This document shows, piece after piece, positions 26,043 through 37,613 of a stretch of DNA of 64,000 nt (position 1 is its first letter; each line of letters begins with the position of its first letter). The stretch lies in NCBI GenBank assembly GCA_048938105.1, contig JBHLMN010000002.1:346214-410213 (forward strand). The letters are read 5' to 3'. The position numbers and the translations under genes are program-made. The notes below the pieces were generated by a model. That model was given only the letters and a program-made list of their open reading frames with translations. It made no database searches and was not told the origin of the DNA. This DNA is from Promethearchaeota archaeon (GTDB taxonomy: Archaea; Asgardarchaeota; Heimdallarchaeia; Hodarchaeales; Hodarchaeaceae).

Positions 26043-28826
26043 ATGGATGAATATTGGCATTCAGAGAATCTCAACGTTTTATTCGATCAATTGGGAGTGG
26101 ATGATAGTGGTTTATCGGATGCAGACGCTGAACAAAGACTCAGACAATATGGCCTAAATGAATTAGAGCGAGCAGAGAAGAAACATCCGATATTTCTTTT
26201 TTTTGCTCAATTCACAGATCCATTAGTTATAATTTTACTTGCTGCTTTGGTTATATCAGTCAGTATAGGGATTTTTTCTCCTGATGAGCATCAGCGATTG
26301 GAGTATTTCATTGATGCTCTTGCGATTTCCGCCATAATAACGTTCAACGCGTTTTTTGGGTTTATTCAAGAGTACAAAGCCGAGAAATCAATTGAAGCAC
26401 TGAAATCAATGGCAGCTCCCTTTACCACAGTCGTTCGTGAGGGGAAGAAGCAGAGAATTGAAGCCCAATATCTTGTACCTGGAGATGTCATCATAATAGA
26501 AGAAGGAGACAAGATTCCTGCGGATGGCCGCCTGCTTGAATCGCATTCTTTGCGCGTCGATGAATCCGCGCTTACTGGAGAGTCTTTTCCTGCTGCAAAA
26601 GAAGCAATGAGTCAACCTATGCCCTATGCACCAATCGCGGATCGTGAAAATTCAGTATATAGTGGTACTAATGTTACAAGAGGTCGTGGTCAAGCTTTAA
26701 TTATTAAAACTGGCATGCAAACCGAGTTTGGTAAGATTGCAAAAGGTTTATTGGAAGAAAAGGTTGAAGAAACTCCTCTTCAAAAGAGATTAGCTACTCT
26801 CGGAAAATGGATTGGAATAGCTAGTTTGACCATTTGTGCTATCATATTCATCATCGGTGTGCTTCTACAGCGAGGAGCTATTGAAATGTTCATTGTTGCT
26901 GTTGGTTTAGCTGTAGCAGCTGTTCCAGAGGGCCTTCCTGCTGTTGTTACACTTGCCTTAGCTCTTGGAGTTCAACGTATGAGTCGGAAAAATGCTATTA
27001 TTAGACGACTTCCCTCTGTTGAGACCCTAGGTTCAACAACAGTCATTTGCTCCGATAAAACTGGAACTCTTACGAGAAACAAAATGACTGTTCGGAAAAT
27101 TCTTACTGTAGATGATGAATACAATGCTTCTAAAAACACTCCTATGAATGATGTACTTAGTTTGATTCTTACCATCGGTTCAGAATGCAACAATGCACAG
27201 CTTGCAGATTCTGAAAGGAAGAATGAGGGGGAATCAAAGGAAGTTGATATTGGTGATCCGACAGAAATTGCCATATTAAGAGTCGCAGAAAGAATGAACA
27301 TGTTTGATTCGACGAAAGTACGATATAAGCGATTGTATGAGGTACCCTTTGATTCTGACTCGAAACGTATGAGTGTATTAGTACAAAACCTCCAGGGGGA
27401 ATACTTTGTATTCACGAAGGGAGCTCCTGATGTTCTAATTAGCTTATGCGCATATTACTTCTCTAATGGAGAAATTAAACCTCTTAATGATGAAACACGT
27501 GTTAAATTAGAAGAAGCAGAGCAGAATCTTGCAAAGACTGGTTATCGAATGCTTGGAATGGCTTTTAAATCTGTAGATCCAAAAACAGCCAAAATTGACA
27601 AAATCTTATTATCCGAGGATACCGAAGAGATTGAGTCTCAACTGGTCTATGTTGGAGCCATGGCTATCATGGATCCTCCAAGAAAGGGTACCAAGGCTGC
27701 CATTGAAACTTGTAAGAATGCAGGTATTCGACCAGTCATGATTACTGGTGATCATCTTAAAACAGCTGTCGCGGTGGCAGCTGAAATCGGATTAGTGTCA
27801 TCGAACGAGCCAACACGATCAATGGAAGGAAGTGAATTGGCTAAAATTAGTGATGAAGAGCTTGCAAGAGTAGTTATGGATGTAAATATTTTTGCTCGGG
27901 TATCACCAGAACACAAACTCAAACTAGTTTCTGCTTTAAAATCCCATAATGAGATTGTTGCTATGACTGGGGATGGAGTTAATGATGCACCTGCTTTAAA
28001 ACATGCTGATATAGGAGTAGCAATGGGTATTGCTGGAACAGATGTATCAAAAGAAGCCTCAGACATGATTTTAGCGGACGATGATTTTTCAACCATTATT
28101 GGTGCAGTTCTTGAAGGAAGAACGATATATGATAATATGAGAAAATTTATTCTCTACTTGCTTTCCTGTAATGCAGGGGAAATTGCAGTTATGTTTTTTG
28201 GAATTCTTCTCACATCACTCATTTTTCAGACACCAATATTGCCTCTTCTTGCAATTCAAATTCTTTGGGTTAATTTAATAACTGATGGACTTCCAGCTCT
28301 TGCAATGGGAGTTGATCCCCCTGACCCTGATGTTATGATCAGACAACCACGCGATCCTAAAGAGCCAATTCTCACACGAAAGTCAGTGTTTTTCATAATA
28401 TATTCAGGATTCATTATTGCAGTTGGAACATTATTCTTATTTTTCTTATATATGTATTCTGATGTTTTTACTGGTCAGCTTCCTTCTGAAGACACTCGAA
28501 TCCGTGCACAAACAGTTGCTTTTACAATGCTGATTATGTTTCAGATGATTATGGCTATAAACATTCGGAAAGAAGAGCATTCATTACTTGGGAAAGAGTT
28601 CGTTCGAAATCCTTACCTTTTACTTGCTATTGCAAGTTCAGTCGTTCTTCATATATTAATAGTCTACATTCCTTTTTTCCAACCATTTTTTAACACTATT
28701 GAACTTAATCCTTTTGATTGGTTTATGATAATTGCTCTTGGGAGTATTCTTATAATAGTGGATGAAGTACGAACATTCATCGCACATAAAATACCTCGGT
28801 TACAAAAGATAGCAGGATACTGGTGA
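26043..28826 (+). CDS. P-type IIA (SERCA-like) Ca2+-transporting ATPase
   Basis: TGES, PEGL, DKTGT, KGAPD, GDGVND; M5 LSCNAGE and M6 WVNLITDG Ca-site residues. Confidence 0.93.
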   Translation: MDEYWHSENLNVLFDQLGVDDSGLSDADAEQRLRQYGLNELERAEKKHPIFLFFAQFTDPLVIILLAALVISVSIGIFSPDEHQRLEYFIDALAISAIITFNAFFGFIQEYKAEKSIEALKSMAAPFTTVVREGKKQRIEAQYLVPGDVIIIEEGDKIPADGRLLESHSLRVDESALTGESFPAAKEAMSQPMPYAPIADRENSVYSGTNVTRGRGQALIIKTGMQTEFGKIAKGLLEEKVEETPLQKRLATLGKWIGIASLTICAIIFIIGVLLQRGAIEMFIVAVGLAVAAVPEGLPAVVTLALALGVQRMSRKNAIIRRLPSVETLGSTTVICSDKTGTLTRNKMTVRKILTVDDEYNASKNTPMNDVLSLILTIGSECNNAQLADSERKNEGESKEVDIGDPTEIAILRVAERMNMFDSTKVRYKRLYEVPFDSDSKRMSVLVQNLQGEYFVFTKGAPDVLISLCAYYFSNGEIKPLNDETRVKLEEAEQNLAKTGYRMLGMAFKSVDPKTAKIDKILLSEDTEEIESQLVYVGAMAIMDPPRKGTKAAIETCKNAGIRPVMITGDHLKTAVAVAAEIGLVSSNEPTRSMEGSELAKISDEELARVVMDVNIFARVSPEHKLKLVSALKSHNEIVAMTGDGVNDAPALKHADIGVAMGIAGTDVSKEASDMILADDDFSTIIGAVLEGRTIYDNMRKFILYLLSCNAGEIAVMFFGILLTSLIFQTPILPLLAIQILWVNLITDGLPALAMGVDPPDPDVMIRQPRDPKEPILTRKSVFFIIYSGFIIAVGTLFLFFLYMYSDVFTGQLPSEDTRIRAQTVAFTMLIMFQMIMAINIRKEEHSLLGKEFVRNPYLLLAIASSVVLHILIVYIPFFQPFFNTIELNPFDWFMIIALGSILIIVDEVRTFIAHKIPRLQKIAGYW

Positions 28827-29009: not shown

Positions 29010-30518
29010 TTGGTTTCAATACTAAGAACCAGAGTTTCTCGCATATCTAATGCAGTGATATTTTTCGCATTAGCTTTGGTTCAAATCGTGATTGTTTCAT
29101 GGATTAGTATTAGCCAAGAGGCGAAACCAGAATTTTTGGAATTCCAATGGATTACTCAGTGGCATTTTTTAGGTTTTTATATTTCTATCAACCCTATGGC
29201 TGATCCTAGATTCACTGTTTTGTTAATAGTACTAACGGCTGGGCTGCAATTATTATTATTAGGATTTCTGGTAAATGTTGTGTTTTCAAATAAAAATATG
29301 GTTCAGATTTACCCTGAACCGTTATATGGTCCTTCTTATGCTCCTGAAGAAGCTCCATTGGTTGATAAAACAATCGAACTAGTAACAAGAGTTTCAAAAA
29401 AGGTGAGAATTAAAGTTAAAAAGATCTTTGTTTATCGAAAAGCGGTACCTAACGCATTTTCTCTTGATCTTCTGCCAATTCCTTTTTTTCGAAGACCATA
29501 CTTAGTTCTTAACACTAATGTTTTAGAAATTCTGAATGATAACGAAATTGAGGCAGTTATTGCTCATGAACTTGCCCACGTTAAAAATAGTGATAGTCTA
29601 ATTCGATTAATATTATCTATTCCCCGTTTGTTCCTTAATCTTGTTTATATCTTTATATACCTACAAATCGTTACAGGTATATTAGTTGCAATTTTTGATA
29701 CTTTTAATCCTGGAATAGCCTTAGAACGAGTTATTTTCCTGGGATTAATGTATTTGATTATAGCAATTGTCACAAAAATAACAGTTCATTTTCTTTCCTC
29801 CGCTAATCGTCAGGCTGAATATCTGGCAGATTATTTTGCAGCTACTTTGGTTGGTTCAGATGTTTTAATTAACTCTTTAATTCATCTAGGCCAACGGAGT
29901 GAAACAATGCAAGTGCTATCCCGAGAGATTGAGTGGCTTGCGAGTCTTTCAGAAGAGAAAAAGCCTTCTAGTACATTTCTAGGGAGGATTTATCAGCGGT
30001 TTCCCAAAACACAACTCAATGAGGATGTTGCTCGTGAAATTGCCCCAAAAATCTTCTTAGAAGAGAAACTTGAAGAGCTTGTGACTCATTACGGTATAGA
30101 TCTAGATATAGGGGAGAGGATACAGCTTGTAAATAGGGCTGTTCCTGTTTTACTAAAAAAGAGAGCTAAATATTTTATATCATTAGAAAAAAAAAGAGAA
30201 AAAGAAAATGAAGTAGACTTAACTCCTAGCATTCTAAAAGCAAAAACAATCGATTGGCGACATTTTGACTACAATGCCAGTCAAACCCTCGAAGACGAGG
30301 AAATTGAAAGTTTTATTGCCACGTTAATTGCTCAACCAGATAAAATGGTTTTTGAGCACGAGCTTTTTCAAACACCAGAAAAAGACGGTGATCACCCAAA
30401 CTTTCGAGAAAGAATTCTTAGAATCTTCCGTATCTTTCATCTGAATGAGTATGAGAAGATTGTAGAGCAAATTGCCTCTGAAATCCCATCAAAAGTCGTT
30501 TCTGATTCTCAATCATAA
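29010..30518 (+). CDS. M48/HtpX-like membrane zinc protease with a large cytoplasmic insertion
   Basis: PNAF, AVIAHELAH (HEXXH), QAEYLAD, HPNFRERI; TM helices. Confidence 0.88.
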   Translation: MVSILRTRVSRISNAVIFFALALVQIVIVSWISISQEAKPEFLEFQWITQWHFLGFYISINPMADPRFTVLLIVLTAGLQLLLLGFLVNVVFSNKNMVQIYPEPLYGPSYAPEEAPLVDKTIELVTRVSKKVRIKVKKIFVYRKAVPNAFSLDLLPIPFFRRPYLVLNTNVLEILNDNEIEAVIAHELAHVKNSDSLIRLILSIPRLFLNLVYIFIYLQIVTGILVAIFDTFNPGIALERVIFLGLMYLIIAIVTKITVHFLSSANRQAEYLADYFAATLVGSDVLINSLIHLGQRSETMQVLSREIEWLASLSEEKKPSSTFLGRIYQRFPKTQLNEDVAREIAPKIFLEEKLEELVTHYGIDLDIGERIQLVNRAVPVLLKKRAKYFISLEKKREKENEVDLTPSILKAKTIDWRHFDYNASQTLEDEEIESFIATLIAQPDKMVFEHELFQTPEKDGDHPNFRERILRIFRIFHLNEYEKIVEQIASEIPSKVVSDSQS

Positions 30519-31540
30519 AGAACTTTTTCCAACATGGCAGGAATTGACCGTTCGTCGGGTGTCATTAAATATAGCTTGATATTAGGTAATTTTCTAAGTT
30601 TTCCTATGATGGGAGTAGTGAGTTGAAGTGTTTGGCGTCGTGGAGTAAGTATAATTCGAACATCCTCTATTCGGCTAAGAATGGGTAGAAAATCCATCCC
30701 ACTAGTGGCAAGAAGATCGGAAATAATAATAAGTGTTTTTTTACGTCCAATTTGATGAGAAAATTCTTTATTTGCTGCGAGTAATGCTGAAAAGATATCT
30801 GTTTTTCCCCCAGAACGAATATTGACTAATTTGGTAATAATATCCTGTGTGGTCATTTGTGAGTCAATGAATCTTTTAAAAACTTCTGGTTGGGTATCAA
30901 ATCCAATCAAGGATATTTCTTTTATATTGAGCGTTAAGCTAAACAAAATAGATGTGAGAATAATCAGTTTGAGATAAGATAATACTGAATGACTCTTATC
31001 GATTAGTAATACTACATATTTTTGTTTCCAAATTCTTTTATTACAAATAACATGATTATACGTAAAATAAGAGTCCCCTGAAAGAAGGAAATTTACAATC
31101 GTTTTTTCTAGATCCCATGTTCTACCAGGAATATAGGGTATTTTTATAGGGTATCTTGAACGATCAATTGCATGAAAAATTCTCTTTGCATGCTTAAATA
31201 ACTTAGGAATAAGCTTTTGTAAGAGAATCTGCTTTTCCTTAGGTGAAAAGTGCTCTTTAATTTGAAAAAATAAAGAATTGGACTCTAAAATGAAGTTAAA
31301 ATTGGTAGAATCAATTTGCAATACTTCTGCGACAGTTCGTGGATAATTTTCAGCTAAAATTTCAATGACTCGGATGTTTTGTGTTTCTAAAGCTTGTTGT
31401 GTAAATTCCAAAGCAGTTTCAATATTTAATTTGTTTTGTAATTGATACTCATAGAGTTTTTCAAGTAAATAGGTAGGAGGTTCTGTATCATGAATGGTTC
31501 GCGAACGAGAAGCGGGAGCAATGTCCCGCCTTAAGATTTT
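30509..31540 (-). CDS. VWA (MIDAS) domain protein; frame open for 43 codons upstream of the TTG at 31411, probably translated as a -1 frameshift extension of the AAA gene
   Basis: LLIDKSHSV (DxSxS), GKTDI, IISDL; no stop and no ATG/GTG/TTG in frame between 31567 and 31412. Confidence 0.85.
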   Translation of the reverse strand, partial: KILRRDIAPASRSRTIHDTEPPTYLLEKLYEYQLQNKLNIETALEFTQQALETQNIRVIEILAENYPRTVAEVLQIDSTNFNFILESNSLFFQIKEHFSPKEKQILLQKLIPKLFKHAKRIFHAIDRSRYPIKIPYIPGRTWDLEKTIVNFLLSGDSYFTYNHVICNKRIWKQKYVVLLIDKSHSVLSYLKLIILTSILFSLTLNIKEISLIGFDTQPEVFKRFIDSQMTTQDIITKLVNIRSGGKTDIFSALLAANKEFSHQIGRKKTLIIISDLLATSGMDFLPILSRIEDVRIILTPRRQTLQLTTPIIGKLRKLPNIKLYLMTPDERSIPAMLEKVLYD

Positions 31541-31546
31541 TTTGGG
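31510..31546 (-). other. Candidate -1 programmed ribosomal frameshift cassette
   Basis: mRNA: UCC CCA AAA AAA UCU UAA; slippery C CCA AAA (31546-31540) and A AAA AAA (31543-31537); stem AGGCGGGA/UCCCGCUU (31531-31510) with loop CAUUGC. Confidence 0.7.
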
Positions 31547-32376
31547 GAAAAAATTGGTTCTGCGATTTCAAAAAGGCATTCTTCAACTGTTTTATTAATA
31601 TCTGGATGTAATTTGACTTTACCTGAATAAACTGCATAAATAGCAGGAAAAACAACATCTGGAGTTGTTGGTCTATTTTTCAGGAGTTGAGTAAGCTGAA
31701 TTGCGGCCCTTACACTTGCTCCTGCTTCGAAATTCGTGGATGATCGTGTTTGATCAGTAAAAAGGACAATTTTCGCTATGAGATCGTCATCAGTGTATTT
31801 TGTCCTTAGTTGAACGATCCTTTTTGCTTCATCCCCAGATTTGTGTTCTAAGCGAATTAAAATACATCTGTCAAAAAATGCTTCTGGTAATGGATTGGTT
31901 CCTATATATTCAGCAGGATTTCTAGCGAAAATTGAGTAAAATTCATCTTTTGCTTGAATTTGTCCAAGCTGGGGAATTTCAATTTTACGTTCATCCAAGG
32001 CTGCTAGAACTCCATTTATAGATTCACTCGGAGCACGATTAACTTCATTAAAGAAAAATAATCCTCCTTTTTGCATAGCATTTACCAATGGACCAGGGAT
32101 GAAACTTTCTTCGCCAAAACCTGTTTTCATGACCAAAGGTGGATCAAACCATCCCCTGAGATGAGTGATTGTGAGGTTCTCGTCACCATCAACTCGATAA
32201 AAAGGTTGTCCGAGAGCCATTGCAATTGTTTTTACTAATTCAGTCTTACCAACACCCGACTCTCCCTCAATAACAGTAGCAATTTGGCTATTAATTGCAG
32301 CAAGGATTAGCTGAATTTCTTCGTCGAGACCGATTAGATTCTCCTGACATTTTCTAAGAATAACTTTGGAATTCAT
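31531..32376 (-). CDS. MoxR/CoxD-like AAA+ ATPase
   Basis: Walker A GESGVGKT, Walker B variant FFFNEVNR, ARNP sensor region, LPEAFFDR arginine finger. Confidence 0.9.
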   Translation of the reverse strand: MNSKVILRKCQENLIGLDEEIQLILAAINSQIATVIEGESGVGKTELVKTIAMALGQPFYRVDGDENLTITHLRGWFDPPLVMKTGFGEESFIPGPLVNAMQKGGLFFFNEVNRAPSESINGVLAALDERKIEIPQLGQIQAKDEFYSIFARNPAEYIGTNPLPEAFFDRCILIRLEHKSGDEAKRIVQLRTKYTDDDLIAKIVLFTDQTRSSTNFEAGASVRAAIQLTQLLKNRPTTPDVVFPAIYAVYSGKVKLHPDINKTVEECLFEIAEPIFSPKKS

Positions 32377-35228: not shown

Positions 35229-37613
35229 CTAGAGAATTTTAGCCAAGATCAGTGGAACCTGACCTATTGCAACTCCTCCATCACCACAGGGTATCTTTTT
35301 ATGCATAATCGAGAAATTAGAATTACCATATTTGGAAATATACTTGTAAAATTCAGTAAAAATCACACGATTATAACAAACTCCTCCTGACATCCCAATT
35401 TTCGTAATCCCATGTTTATCAGCAAGATCCAAGGCAACCTCCGCAAACTTTCTAGCAATGGCTTTTTCTGCTAACAATGCCAATTTATTACGATTTTCTT
35501 TTCGTTGGATTCGCTCCCACAGGTTGTAAATGAGGGATGAGGTTTGAATTTCAACAACGCCATTTGTTGTGAGCTTTTCAGTTAATTCAAACTCGAAATC
35601 AATTGGTTTTCCTATTGCTTTTTCAGCAAAGGATTCTAGTTTAATTGCAGGTTCCCCTTCATAAGTTCGGTTCTTTGCTGCACCTAAGAGAACACTGACG
35701 GCATCTAGTAGCCGTCCGCAGCTCGATGTCATATTAACACCAGCAGAAGATTTATGAATTAAGATTTTTTCTAGCTGTTGAGCTACAATAGAATAATCAA
35801 ATGATTTGGGGATCCATGATAACCAGGGGTTCTTTTGAAATCCTTTAGTTACTTCTTGAAACGAATAATTCGAAAGAAGAATACCTAGAAGAACTCTATA
35901 TGGATGGGACACAGCTTGGTCTCCACCTAGAAGAATTTGGTTTTCTAAGTGGGCTATCCGCTCATATTCCGAATAATTACCTAATAGTATTTCTCCTCCC
36001 CAAATTCTACCATCTTCACCATACCCAGTTCCGTCTATAGCTGCACAAATTATCTTTTCTTCAGGATCGATTTTAGCATCTAAGGCCAAAGCACCTAAAT
36101 GCGCAAAATGGTGTTGAAATTGGTAAAAAGGGATATTTAGTTCCGATGAGAGTTGTTGGCCTAATTTTGAAGTAAAGAATTGCGGATGAAGGTCACCACC
36201 AATGGCCTCAAGTGATTTAACCCCTAATAATTCTTTCATATGGTCTATAGTCGCTTTAAAAAAGTCTAGGTTTTCGATTGTGGTCATATGACCAATGTGT
36301 TGGGTTGGAAAACACCGAATCCCAATTCCTAAAACTCCTACATTATACATCTCTGCTCCGAGTGCAAGAACTATACGACCATTAGAAGACCATGGTAATT
36401 GGATAGGTTCAGGAACATAACCCCTGCTTCTCCGTATAAGCAATGGGTGTTCTGATTCGTTAAACATATGAAGTCGCATAATACTGTCATCAGCTCGTTG
36501 ATATATCTCCCTATCATGTAAAAGAAGATAATCTGCAACTGATGCAAGCTGATGTTGAATATTATCATTATCTATTAGGATTGGGATGTTACTAGGATTA
36601 CCTGAAGTCATGATGAGAGCAGGATCGATAATATTTTCCAAAATTAAAAAGTGAATACCTGCATATGGTAATAAAACACCAATGTTATGTAAACCAGGTG
36701 AAATGAAAGACGAAAGAGGGAATTCCTGTTTCTTTTCAAGTAGTAGAATGGGACGCATGAGAGATTGAAGTAATTTTGCCTCAGTAGGGGTATAATCGGC
36801 AAAACTCTGTACTCTATATAGATCAGGTGACATAACAGCAAAAGGTTTATCCCCACGTGCGCCTTTCCACCTCCTCAATTTTAGAATAGGATCGTCCATT
36901 GTAGTATAACTAGCAAGATGGGTACCACCTATCCCCTTTATTGCAAGAATTTTCCCTTCATCTAATATTTTAACAACATCAAGCCAATCGTTTCGAAATT
37001 CATCTTTATTTAAGACAATGTCACCAGATTTGTCTGCTAGATAATACTTTGGCCCGCAATTCCAACAACAAGTCGTTTGAGCGTGAAATCTTCGGTCGAT
37101 AGGATTAGTATATTCATCTAAGCATTCGGGACATAATGGAAATTTATCCATAACTGTTCGTGATCTATCATAAGGAAGTGAAGTAATAACTGTGTAACGA
37201 GGCCCACAATCGACACAAGAAGTAAATGGGTAATTTATACGTCGAGAATCAAATTTCATATCAGAGAGGCACTTATTACAAATAGGAAGATCAGGAGGGA
37301 TGTAAGAACCCTCAACACTGCGTGTTAGTGAGCTGGGAGCGATTTGAAATGAATCATATTGAGCAAGGTTTACGTTTGGAGGATTATAAGCGATTTTGAA
37401 GGTTTCATAACGCGCAAGAGCTGGTTTATGATTTTTCAGAGTTTTAATAAAAGCTTCAATTTGTTTTTTATTCCCTTTGACTTGAATTTCAACACCAGCG
37501 TCCCCTCGATTTTGTACAAAGCCCTTCATTTCATGTTTATGTGCAATATTATAAACGAATGGACGAAAACCAATTCCTTGAACCACACCATTAATCATTA
37601 TTCGGCAGAACAC
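35229..37613 (-). CDS. hypF: Hydrogenase maturation carbamoyltransferase HypF
   Basis: GVVQGIGFRPF acylphosphatase, two CxxC zinc fingers, KGIGG, DLHP, QHH.AH, DGTGYG, GDGG. Confidence 0.96.
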   Translation of the reverse strand: MFCRIMINGVVQGIGFRPFVYNIAHKHEMKGFVQNRGDAGVEIQVKGNKKQIEAFIKTLKNHKPALARYETFKIAYNPPNVNLAQYDSFQIAPSSLTRSVEGSYIPPDLPICNKCLSDMKFDSRRINYPFTSCVDCGPRYTVITSLPYDRSRTVMDKFPLCPECLDEYTNPIDRRFHAQTTCCWNCGPKYYLADKSGDIVLNKDEFRNDWLDVVKILDEGKILAIKGIGGTHLASYTTMDDPILKLRRWKGARGDKPFAVMSPDLYRVQSFADYTPTEAKLLQSLMRPILLLEKKQEFPLSSFISPGLHNIGVLLPYAGIHFLILENIIDPALIMTSGNPSNIPILIDNDNIQHQLASVADYLLLHDREIYQRADDSIMRLHMFNESEHPLLIRRSRGYVPEPIQLPWSSNGRIVLALGAEMYNVGVLGIGIRCFPTQHIGHMTTIENLDFFKATIDHMKELLGVKSLEAIGGDLHPQFFTSKLGQQLSSELNIPFYQFQHHFAHLGALALDAKIDPEEKIICAAIDGTGYGEDGRIWGGEILLGNYSEYERIAHLENQILLGGDQAVSHPYRVLLGILLSNYSFQEVTKGFQKNPWLSWIPKSFDYSIVAQQLEKILIHKSSAGVNMTSSCGRLLDAVSVLLGAAKNRTYEGEPAIKLESFAEKAIGKPIDFEFELTEKLTTNGVVEIQTSSLIYNLWERIQRKENRNKLALLAEKAIARKFAEVALDLADKHGITKIGMSGGVCYNRVIFTEFYKYISKYGNSNFSIMHKKIPCGDGGVAIGQVPLILAKIL

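Follow-up and report, generated by a model that had tools for sequence, protein, structure and literature searches.

The closest described precedent for the gene analysed here is the frameshifted chlD gene (fs-chlD) of magnesium and cobalt chelatases, in which a -1 shift at A-rich sites yields a small AAA+ chelatase subunit together with a medium AAA+-VWA subunit, and which occurs in archaea too, in Methanocaldococcus and Methanococcus (Antonov et al. 2013, PMC3711429; Kuznetsov et al. 2022, PMC9227772). In a 2021 review, just one -1 programmed ribosomal frameshift (PRF) is described as reported from Archaea, that of fucA1 (PMC8211752). The current analysis concerns two overlapping reading frames on the minus strand of a 64,000-nt stretch of DNA, hereafter the window, from a Promethearchaeota archaeon of the Hodarchaeales (assembly GCA_048938105.1, contig JBHLMN010000002.1, positions 346,214 to 410,213). 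The first frame encodes a MoxR-class ATPase and the second a VWA protein with a MIDAS motif. In this respect, the pair resembles NorQ/NorD, CbbQ/CbbO, RavA/ViaA and CoxD/CoxE, each an AAA_5/AAA_3 ATPase followed by a VWA/MIDAS partner, but in these chaperone pairs the partners come from separate, independently initiated genes. In Escherichia coli dnaX (tau/gamma), an A_AAA_AAG heptamer and a downstream hairpin direct a frameshift and the two resulting AAA+ isoforms co-assemble in a fixed stoichiometry; there the frameshift gives the short form, whereas in the window it would give the long one.

An earlier reading of this DNA, made without database searches, proposed that the two frames are a single gene joined by a -1 frameshift. 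The features on which this proposal turns are as follows, with positions counted along the window.

32376-31531, minus strand: zero-frame open reading frame (ORF) for a MoxR-class AAA+ ATPase of 281 amino acids, the short product (ATG start; class from Pfam)
31543-31537, minus strand: slippery heptamer A_AAA_AAA, an A7 run within the codons CCA AAA AAA, in X_XXY_YYZ phase
31533-31531, minus strand: zero-frame TAA stop that ends the short product, one codon past the heptamer
31531-31510, minus strand: putative stimulatory hairpin, 8 bp, GC-rich (RNAfold, -13.3 kcal/mol)
31567-30509, minus strand: -1-frame VWA ORF of 352 codons, opening after a TGA at 31570-31568 and closed by a stop at 30511-30509
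31411-31409, minus strand: first ATG, GTG or TTG of the VWA frame, a TTG at residue 53, 122 nt past the ATPase stop

Upon re-reading of the sequence, the ORF ends, coordinates, heptamer phase, -1 frame, hairpin and 622-amino acid size of the predicted fusion were all confirmed. The precedent invoked from chlD is likewise genuine, and full-text literature searches returned neither a frameshift-linked MoxR-VWA pair nor relevant Asgard frameshifting. From the comparative evidence presented below, we consider it likely that the two frames form one recoded gene, with a hairpin-stimulated -1 ribosomal frameshift at A_AAA_AAA.

The junction of the two reading frames

The ATPase ORF ends in ATT TTT TCC CCA AAA AAA TCT TAA, with CCA as the codon preceding the two lysine codons. 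Orthologs were drawn from 19 genomes of the same genus (50-86% amino acid identity), supplemented by 11 junction-spanning contigs from public genome and metagenome collections. The VWA frame lies at -1 relative to the ATPase in 19/19 orthologs and 11/11 contigs, and a run of A residues directly precedes the ATPase stop throughout, ranging from A6 to A13 among the orthologs and from A6 to A15 once the extra contigs are included. An A_AAA_AAN heptamer is in phase in every case (19/19 and 11/11), including 7/7 of the A6 runs, for which just one of the three phases is permissive. The zero-frame stop follows 0-8 codons past the run in all orthologs. In three of them (L006, L013 and L014), the -1 frame opens just 10 nt ahead of this stop and therefore the shift must happen at the A-run. 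The combination of a -1 transition with a slippery run, which the sequence-only reading had proposed to look for among orthologs, is thus conserved. The same A-run arrangement is found in fucA1 of Saccharolobus solfataricus, an alpha-L-fucosidase gene whose two ORFs are joined by an archaeal -1 shift at an A-run heptamer, A_AAA_AAT, which is the exact heptamer of ortholog L010 (PMC1616953, PMC8211752). Unlike the window gene, the fucA1 frameshift produces one functional enzyme with no known role for the short product, and it is confined to a single species rather than conserved across a genus or phylum.

Three other sequence elements near the junction were considered as parts of the signal and rejected. 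The sequence-only reading had named two overlapping heptamers, and C_CCA_AAA is indeed in X_XXY_YYZ phase beside A_AAA_AAA in the window, but only the window and L003 have it, whereas A_AAA_AAA is conserved as A_AAA_AAN. A small UUCG hairpin after the main stem is similarly present in the window and nowhere else in the set. The upstream T-run (ATT TTT TCC) was rejected as the shift site, as a -1-frame stop lies between the T-run and the A-run in L006, L007, L012, L013 and L014.

Since homopolymer runs are error-prone and in-frame fusions of this kind are known from other archaea, one could view the junction as a misassembled homopolymer within an ordinary fused gene or, alternatively, as a recently frameshifted pseudogene. 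Such fusions are indeed numerous. A search for longer proteins recovered 342 AAA_5-VWA fusion proteins of ~500-630 amino acids from Bathyarchaeia, Methanomethylicia and Thermoplasmata, which share 38-54% identity in the ATPase part and, across the junction, are collinear with the ATPase plus the -1 ORF. The existence of these collinear natural in-frame proteins argues that the ATPase-VWA fusion is a real architecture. However, artefact or decay is effectively refuted as an account of the window. About 30 independent assemblies (50-100% identity) keep the -1 state with both frames intact and purifying selection is evident on both ORFs. The DNA itself was checked with Logan contigs of DNA runs, which are assembled contigs rather than raw reads. 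Contigs from three other runs, one from another sample of the same study and two from other studies, cross the A7 run with no gaps; the latter two represent related strains with 5 and 51 substitutions. The run is accordingly A7 in independent DNA, not the A8 that a plain fused gene would have, and a homopolymer assembly error is very unlikely, because these contigs cross the run without an indel. No in-frame fusion was found among the orthologs either, nor was an in-frame variant of the Hodarchaeales ortholog group encountered among longer proteins in 5.8 billion clusters, in which the best match was 54% identical. One of the fused relatives, P0004 (L061:1086-2921), carries an A10 run at the matching place in its linker. 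There, a -1 slip would stop after 5 codons, such that this gene would work the dnaX way, with the short product being the one that depends on slippage.

A second alternative is that the locus holds two ordinary genes, with the VWA protein initiated independently, be it from TTG 31411, from a non-canonical codon, or through reinitiation once translation has terminated at the ATPase stop. A TTG does exist at 31411, the TTG of L010 overlaps its TGA stop, and an in-frame ATG lies upstream in both L009 and L018. Yet, as the sequence-only reading had noted for the window, the VWA frame has no early start, and no start codon is conserved in this frame among the 19 orthologs. The first start-type codon is instead scattered from -67 to +572 nt, the latter in L006. 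The -1 ORF is therefore an overlapping, protein-conserved frame without a start of its own, as is expected of a -1 PRF cassette. Conservation also extends well ahead of the window TTG. Upstream of it, the alignment contains an invariant KK encoded by the run, R-D..P-A encoded by the stem, a variable linker and a conserved LLEKIYEYQLQ. In an AlphaFold2 model of the -1 ORF (pLDDT 79.6), residues 1-30 are disordered and a helical domain begins at residue 32 with pLDDT >80, and consequently a start at residue 53 would truncate this domain. Due to its position inside a conserved and confidently folded helical domain, TTG 31411 is probably not used as a start. Independent initiation would also leave unexplained the in-phase heptamer, the fixed spacer and the rare-codon conservation of the stem described below. 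We regard it as very unlikely.

The downstream hairpin and the length of the A-run

The putative stimulator consists of core arms GCGGGA (31529-31524) and TCCCGC (31517-31512) around a CATTGC loop, plus outer G.U and A-U pairs. It begins 5 nt past the A7 run with its GCGGG core 7 nt past the run, which places it within the 5-9 nt interval typical of -1 PRF cassettes. Such a structure is uncommon in this genome (35% GC, 5.85 Mb, 99% complete). When the 32 nt beyond each of its 15,326 runs of A6 or longer were folded, only 23 runs had a structure of -12 kcal/mol or lower behind them, and the window site ranks 16th. Its presence here is more than chance. The hairpin motif occurs once in the whole 5.85 Mb and the sequence window containing it falls within the top 0.6% most stable of its own locus. 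Across the orthologs, the junction is in the most stable 5% of own-locus windows at 14/19 loci (median, 0.9%).

The hairpin is present in 15 of the 19 orthologs and, in total, 18 distinct loci carry it. In all 18, the distance from the end of the heptamer to GCGGG is 7 nt, the stem arginine is encoded by CGG and the stem proline is encoded by CCC, and the core is invariant in 14/14 aligned loci. The linker around the stem is variable in sequence. Genome-wide, CGG accounts for 7.2% of arginine codons and CCC for 14.7% of proline codons. The retention of these rare codons within the stem at 18/18 loci is the reason to conclude that the hairpin, as judged from its codons, is under RNA-level constraint. 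The outer stem pair involves the third base of the next alanine codon and varies between GC, AU and GU. A change in the outer pair can also be seen in one of the Logan contigs, in which a G>A substitution at 31530 converts the outer G.U pair to A-U.

Based upon these features, the following sequence of events can be envisaged. A ribosome translating the ATPase ORF would meet A_AAA_AAA (31543-31537) with the GCGGGA/UCCCGC hairpin 5-7 nt further on, at the mRNA entry channel. The majority of ribosomes would continue to TCT TAA and release the 281-amino acid ATPase. Some would slip one base back, with tRNA-Lys re-pairing from AAA to AAA and the last base of the heptamer being read twice, and would then read ATC TTA AGG CGG GAC onward. 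The long product would be an ATPase-linker-helical-VWA(MIDAS) protein of 622 amino acids (280 + 342, as 342 of the 352 codons in the -1 frame are used after the slip). Both the ribosomal nature of the slip and the share of ribosomes that make it are inferred. Both tRNA-Lys(UUU) and tRNA-Lys(CUU) are present in the genome, in which aragorn found only 20 tRNAs in all. With introns allowed, one of the 20 has the anticodon CTA (labelled Pyl) and could be either a spurious prediction or a genuine suppressor-type tRNA.

Several observations weigh against this interpretation. The orthologs are related to one another and hence their counts overstate independence. Taken singly, the window hairpin has a z of just -1.5 relative to shuffled sequences. 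The sequence-only reading had also expected compensatory stem changes, and unlike the -1 transition and slippery run, these were not found for the window pair. The core never varies and the stem has no covariation support, its score being reached by 54/500 shuffles. Conservation of the stem could partly reflect the encoded R-D...P-A residues. Furthermore, at the two fused genes examined in other archaea (P0045, in two near-identical places, and P0003), there is no adjacent stand-alone ATPase gene, and a short form is therefore not needed in every case. Lastly, the hairpin-less loci with A10-A15 runs indicate that a run alone can suffice, which leaves room for slippage by RNA polymerase.

This last point concerns the relationship between run length and hairpin. 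All of the A6-A9 loci possess the hairpin (15/15), whereas its 5' arm is absent or eroded in L007 (A10), L017 (A11), L019 (A10), L011 and L059 (both A13), and L066 (A15). In the VWA tree, the long-run loci occupy three separately supported places: L007 lies within a clade of A7 loci with hairpins, L011 is sister to L012 (also A7 with a hairpin), and L017 and L019 form their own lineage. A longer run may compensate for a lost stimulator, or the three lineages may have moved to transcriptional slippage. If the latter mechanism operated at the window as well, the archaeal RNA polymerase would stutter on T7/A7 and add one A, and the A8 mRNAs would be translated normally into the fusion, thus giving the same two products. 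Variation of ortholog runs from A6 to A15 is compatible with this explanation, as is the loss or erosion of the hairpin in three lineages with A10 or longer, since a stimulator would not be needed, and it is mainly this hairpin loss that prevents us from assigning polymerase slippage a lower probability. The efficiency of fs-chlD cassettes also rose with poly-A length (PMC3711429). Conversely, slippage sites are expected to have homopolymers of about 9 or more A/T residues. L007, L017, L019, L011, L059 and L066 have such runs, while the A7 of the window and the A6 of seven orthologs fall below this length and are short by bacterial knowledge. In addition, a polymerase would be indifferent to the strict phase of the heptamer and to the constant 7-nt spacing, both of which are relevant to a ribosome. 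On balance, transcriptional slippage is an unlikely explanation of the window junction, and ribosomal frameshifting remains the preferred one, with support that is comparative in nature: orthologs keep the transition, the heptamer and the hairpin spacing. The contrast between A6/A7 loci with hairpins and A10-A15 loci without them constitutes a natural mutant series for the trade-off between stimulator and run length.

The two predicted products and their genomic setting

By its sequence, the ATPase is a member of the AAA_5/MoxR class. Its top Pfam match is AAA_5 (6e-22, 78.5 bits), followed by AAA_3 (5e-14, 52.7 bits), its Walker A motif is GESGVGKT, and its Walker B motif is FFFNE, in which asparagine stands where aspartate is usual and the catalytic glutamate is kept. 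An hhhhNE rather than hhhhDE Walker B is shared by the paralogous ATPase described below (LFINE, L028:563-1429) and by the fused archaeal relatives. The -1 ORF matches VWA_2 (6.5e-11) and VWA_CoxE with an intact MIDAS motif (DKSHS...T...D), and can be divided into a linker (residues 1-30), a helical domain (32-133) and the VWA domain (~140-352). An AAA_5/AAA_3 core with Walker A and the catalytic glutamate, next to a co-oriented VWA/MIDAS protein, is the arrangement that characterizes MoxR ATPases with VWA partners. Among PDB entries, the best single-domain sequence matches of the ATPase are NorQ, CbbQ and midasin AAA modules, at 30-40 bits each. For the VWA protein, neither sequence nor profile comparison with PDB gave a match below E = 0.1, and the top Foldseek matches of its model are the Rea1 MIDAS domain and the NorD VWA domain, both with small margins over generic VWA domains. 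An NCBIfam search returned GvpN and MadB matches only, both of which are sub-threshold.

The parallels to fs-chlD are extensive. As we propose for the window, a single fs-chlD gene provides a short AAA+ and a long AAA+-VWA protein by way of a -1 shift at the linker between AAA and VWA. In both cases, the slip sites are A-rich with downstream structures, the C-terminal VWA with MIDAS follows a linker, annotation splits the gene into two neighbours, and some relatives are fused in frame. Nevertheless, the window gene is not a member of the chelatase family, since it lacks a Mg_chelatase domain and the genome lacks CobN/ChlH. The window ATPase has no PF01078 match at E<=0.1, with the matches to this model in its own genome belonging to other genes, and the large subunit CobN/ChlH (PF02514) gave no matches in the 99%-complete genome, although controls were positive in five known genomes. 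The gene context is different as well, consisting of a coiled-coil/winged helix-turn-helix (wHTH) protein and an M48 peptidase instead of tetrapyrrole genes. Also unlike fs-chlD, the window genome holds two paralogous cassettes with different slip sites. The neighbouring genes are listed below.

34362-32410, minus strand: upstream co-oriented gene for a 650-amino acid coiled-coil protein with a C-terminal MarR-type winged helix, found upstream in 18/18 orthologous loci
29010-30518, plus strand: convergent downstream gene for a membrane M48-family peptidase, present in 19/19 loci
35229-37613, minus strand: HypF carbamoyltransferase (hydrogenase maturation), two genes upstream on the shared strand
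26043-28826, plus strand: P-type cation ATPase, downstream on the opposite strand

The stop of the M48 peptidase gene overlaps the VWA stop. The coiled-coil/MarR-wHTH neighbour is possibly a client or a scaffold of the ATPase-VWA system. By analogy with the NorQD and CbbQO structures, an ATPase hexamer would presumably bind the VWA partner. We likewise infer, with NorQ/NorD, CbbQ/CbbO and ChlI/ChlD as models, that the short and long products would co-assemble into an AAA+ ring bearing one or a few tethered MIDAS domains, the client of which may be the neighbouring coiled-coil/wHTH protein. As for the fused relatives in other archaea, the P0045 and P0003 genes (L073, L074 and L075) adjoin a gene for DUF2284, a predicted metal-binding domain. 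The neighbours of the P0045 loci, from Methanomethylicia, also include MttB-family methyltransferases, a hint that the role may lie in the maturation of a cofactor or metal.

A paralogous pair and its distribution among Asgard archaea

The same genome encodes a paralogous pair, here referred to as pair B, on another contig (C18, L002/L028:563-2499), with an ATPase that is 37% identical to that of the window. At its junction (L028:1421-1470), CGT TTT TTA TAA contains U_UUU_UUA in phase, followed by a start-less -1 VWA frame and a hairpin, AATCCCG..CGGGATT, located 6 nt past the stop and different from that of the window. The T-run at 31544-31553 in the window, which encodes Ile-Phe-Ser and measures T5-T9 in orthologs, could be a remnant of this U-run slip site. 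The pair B cassette is nearly invariant in 18 members of the genus, and its stem includes two pairs with compensatory changes (observed score reached by 9/500 shuffles).

A sample of 250 Asgard genomes yielded pair B in 165, from which 40 loci (L076-L115) representing about 22 Asgard families were fetched. The VWA is in the -1 frame in 33/40 of these loci, in which the zero frame ends with NAT TTT, 0-1 codon and the stop, and an early start is mostly lacking. The T-run is missing from three of these 33 loci, namely L092 (f15), L107 (f29) and L109 (f5). The exceptions to the -1 layout include an own ATG in the +1 frame in family f22 (L100) and also in f4, in-frame fusions in 2/3 of the f24 loci (L101 and L102), and L112, which has a +1 frame without an early start. 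The downstream hairpins are family-specific, for example GGAGG/CCTCC, GGGAATTC/GAATTCCC and AGGACAT/ATGTCCT. Enrichment of downstream structure is real but weaker outside Heimdallarchaeia, with 29/64 loci in the top 5%. A contig at G084:C119:1330-2433, from a genome of Asgard family f20 with 11% contamination, is 92% identical to a Hodarchaeales pair B protein and was probably mis-binned.

These results bear on each of the alternatives. The two cassettes follow the same logic, and the stem of pair B does have compensatory changes, which favours the proposed frameshift. Given the phylum-wide pattern of pair B, neither chance nor error is a tenable explanation of the window. As an additional argument against transcriptional slippage, pair B often has only U_UUU beside the stop. 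For the two-gene alternative, the evidence from pair B is partly favorable: families f4 and f22 have their own ATG ~10 nt past the stop, and several TGA cases are TTGA overlaps. At L107, where a TTG and the TGA stop overlap, the two frames may be joined by ordinary translational coupling, which could account for some of the TTGA cases as well.

A far broader scenario can also be considered, in which frameshift-coupled expression of a MoxR ATPase and a MIDAS protein would be ancient and phylum-wide among Asgard archaea. It would comprise two paralogous cassettes, one with U_UUU (plus stop) in most lineages and the other with A_AAA_AAN in a Heimdallarchaeia-specific copy, and its role would be to assemble AAA_5 rings to which a MIDAS domain is covalently attached, an arrangement that may be a prokaryotic stage toward midasin/Rea1. 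Eukaryotic midasin/Rea1 similarly combines AAA_5 modules with a tethered MIDAS domain, there in one polypeptide. In summed sequence score, midasin ranks first for the window ATPase, at 131 bits, but this is a sum of three modules of 30-40 bits, and the score per module equals that of NorQ. Together with the small fold margins, this means that a specific midasin ancestry is not supported and is kept as speculation; the scenario as a whole is rather improbable.

For genome annotation, the VWA half in these genomes lacks a dedicated start codon, and its annotation as a separate gene misstates it. Asgard archaea are the archaeal lineage closest to eukaryotes. If the ribosomal frameshift is true, the window gene and pair B, a genus-conserved cassette with a paralog across much of Asgard, would provide the best comparative case of archaeal programmed frameshifting. 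The logic of one gene for a short AAA+ plus a long AAA+-VWA protein would then extend from the chelatases to the MoxR chaperone class, suggesting that stoichiometry is repeatedly fixed by covalently tethering a single MIDAS adaptor to each ring.

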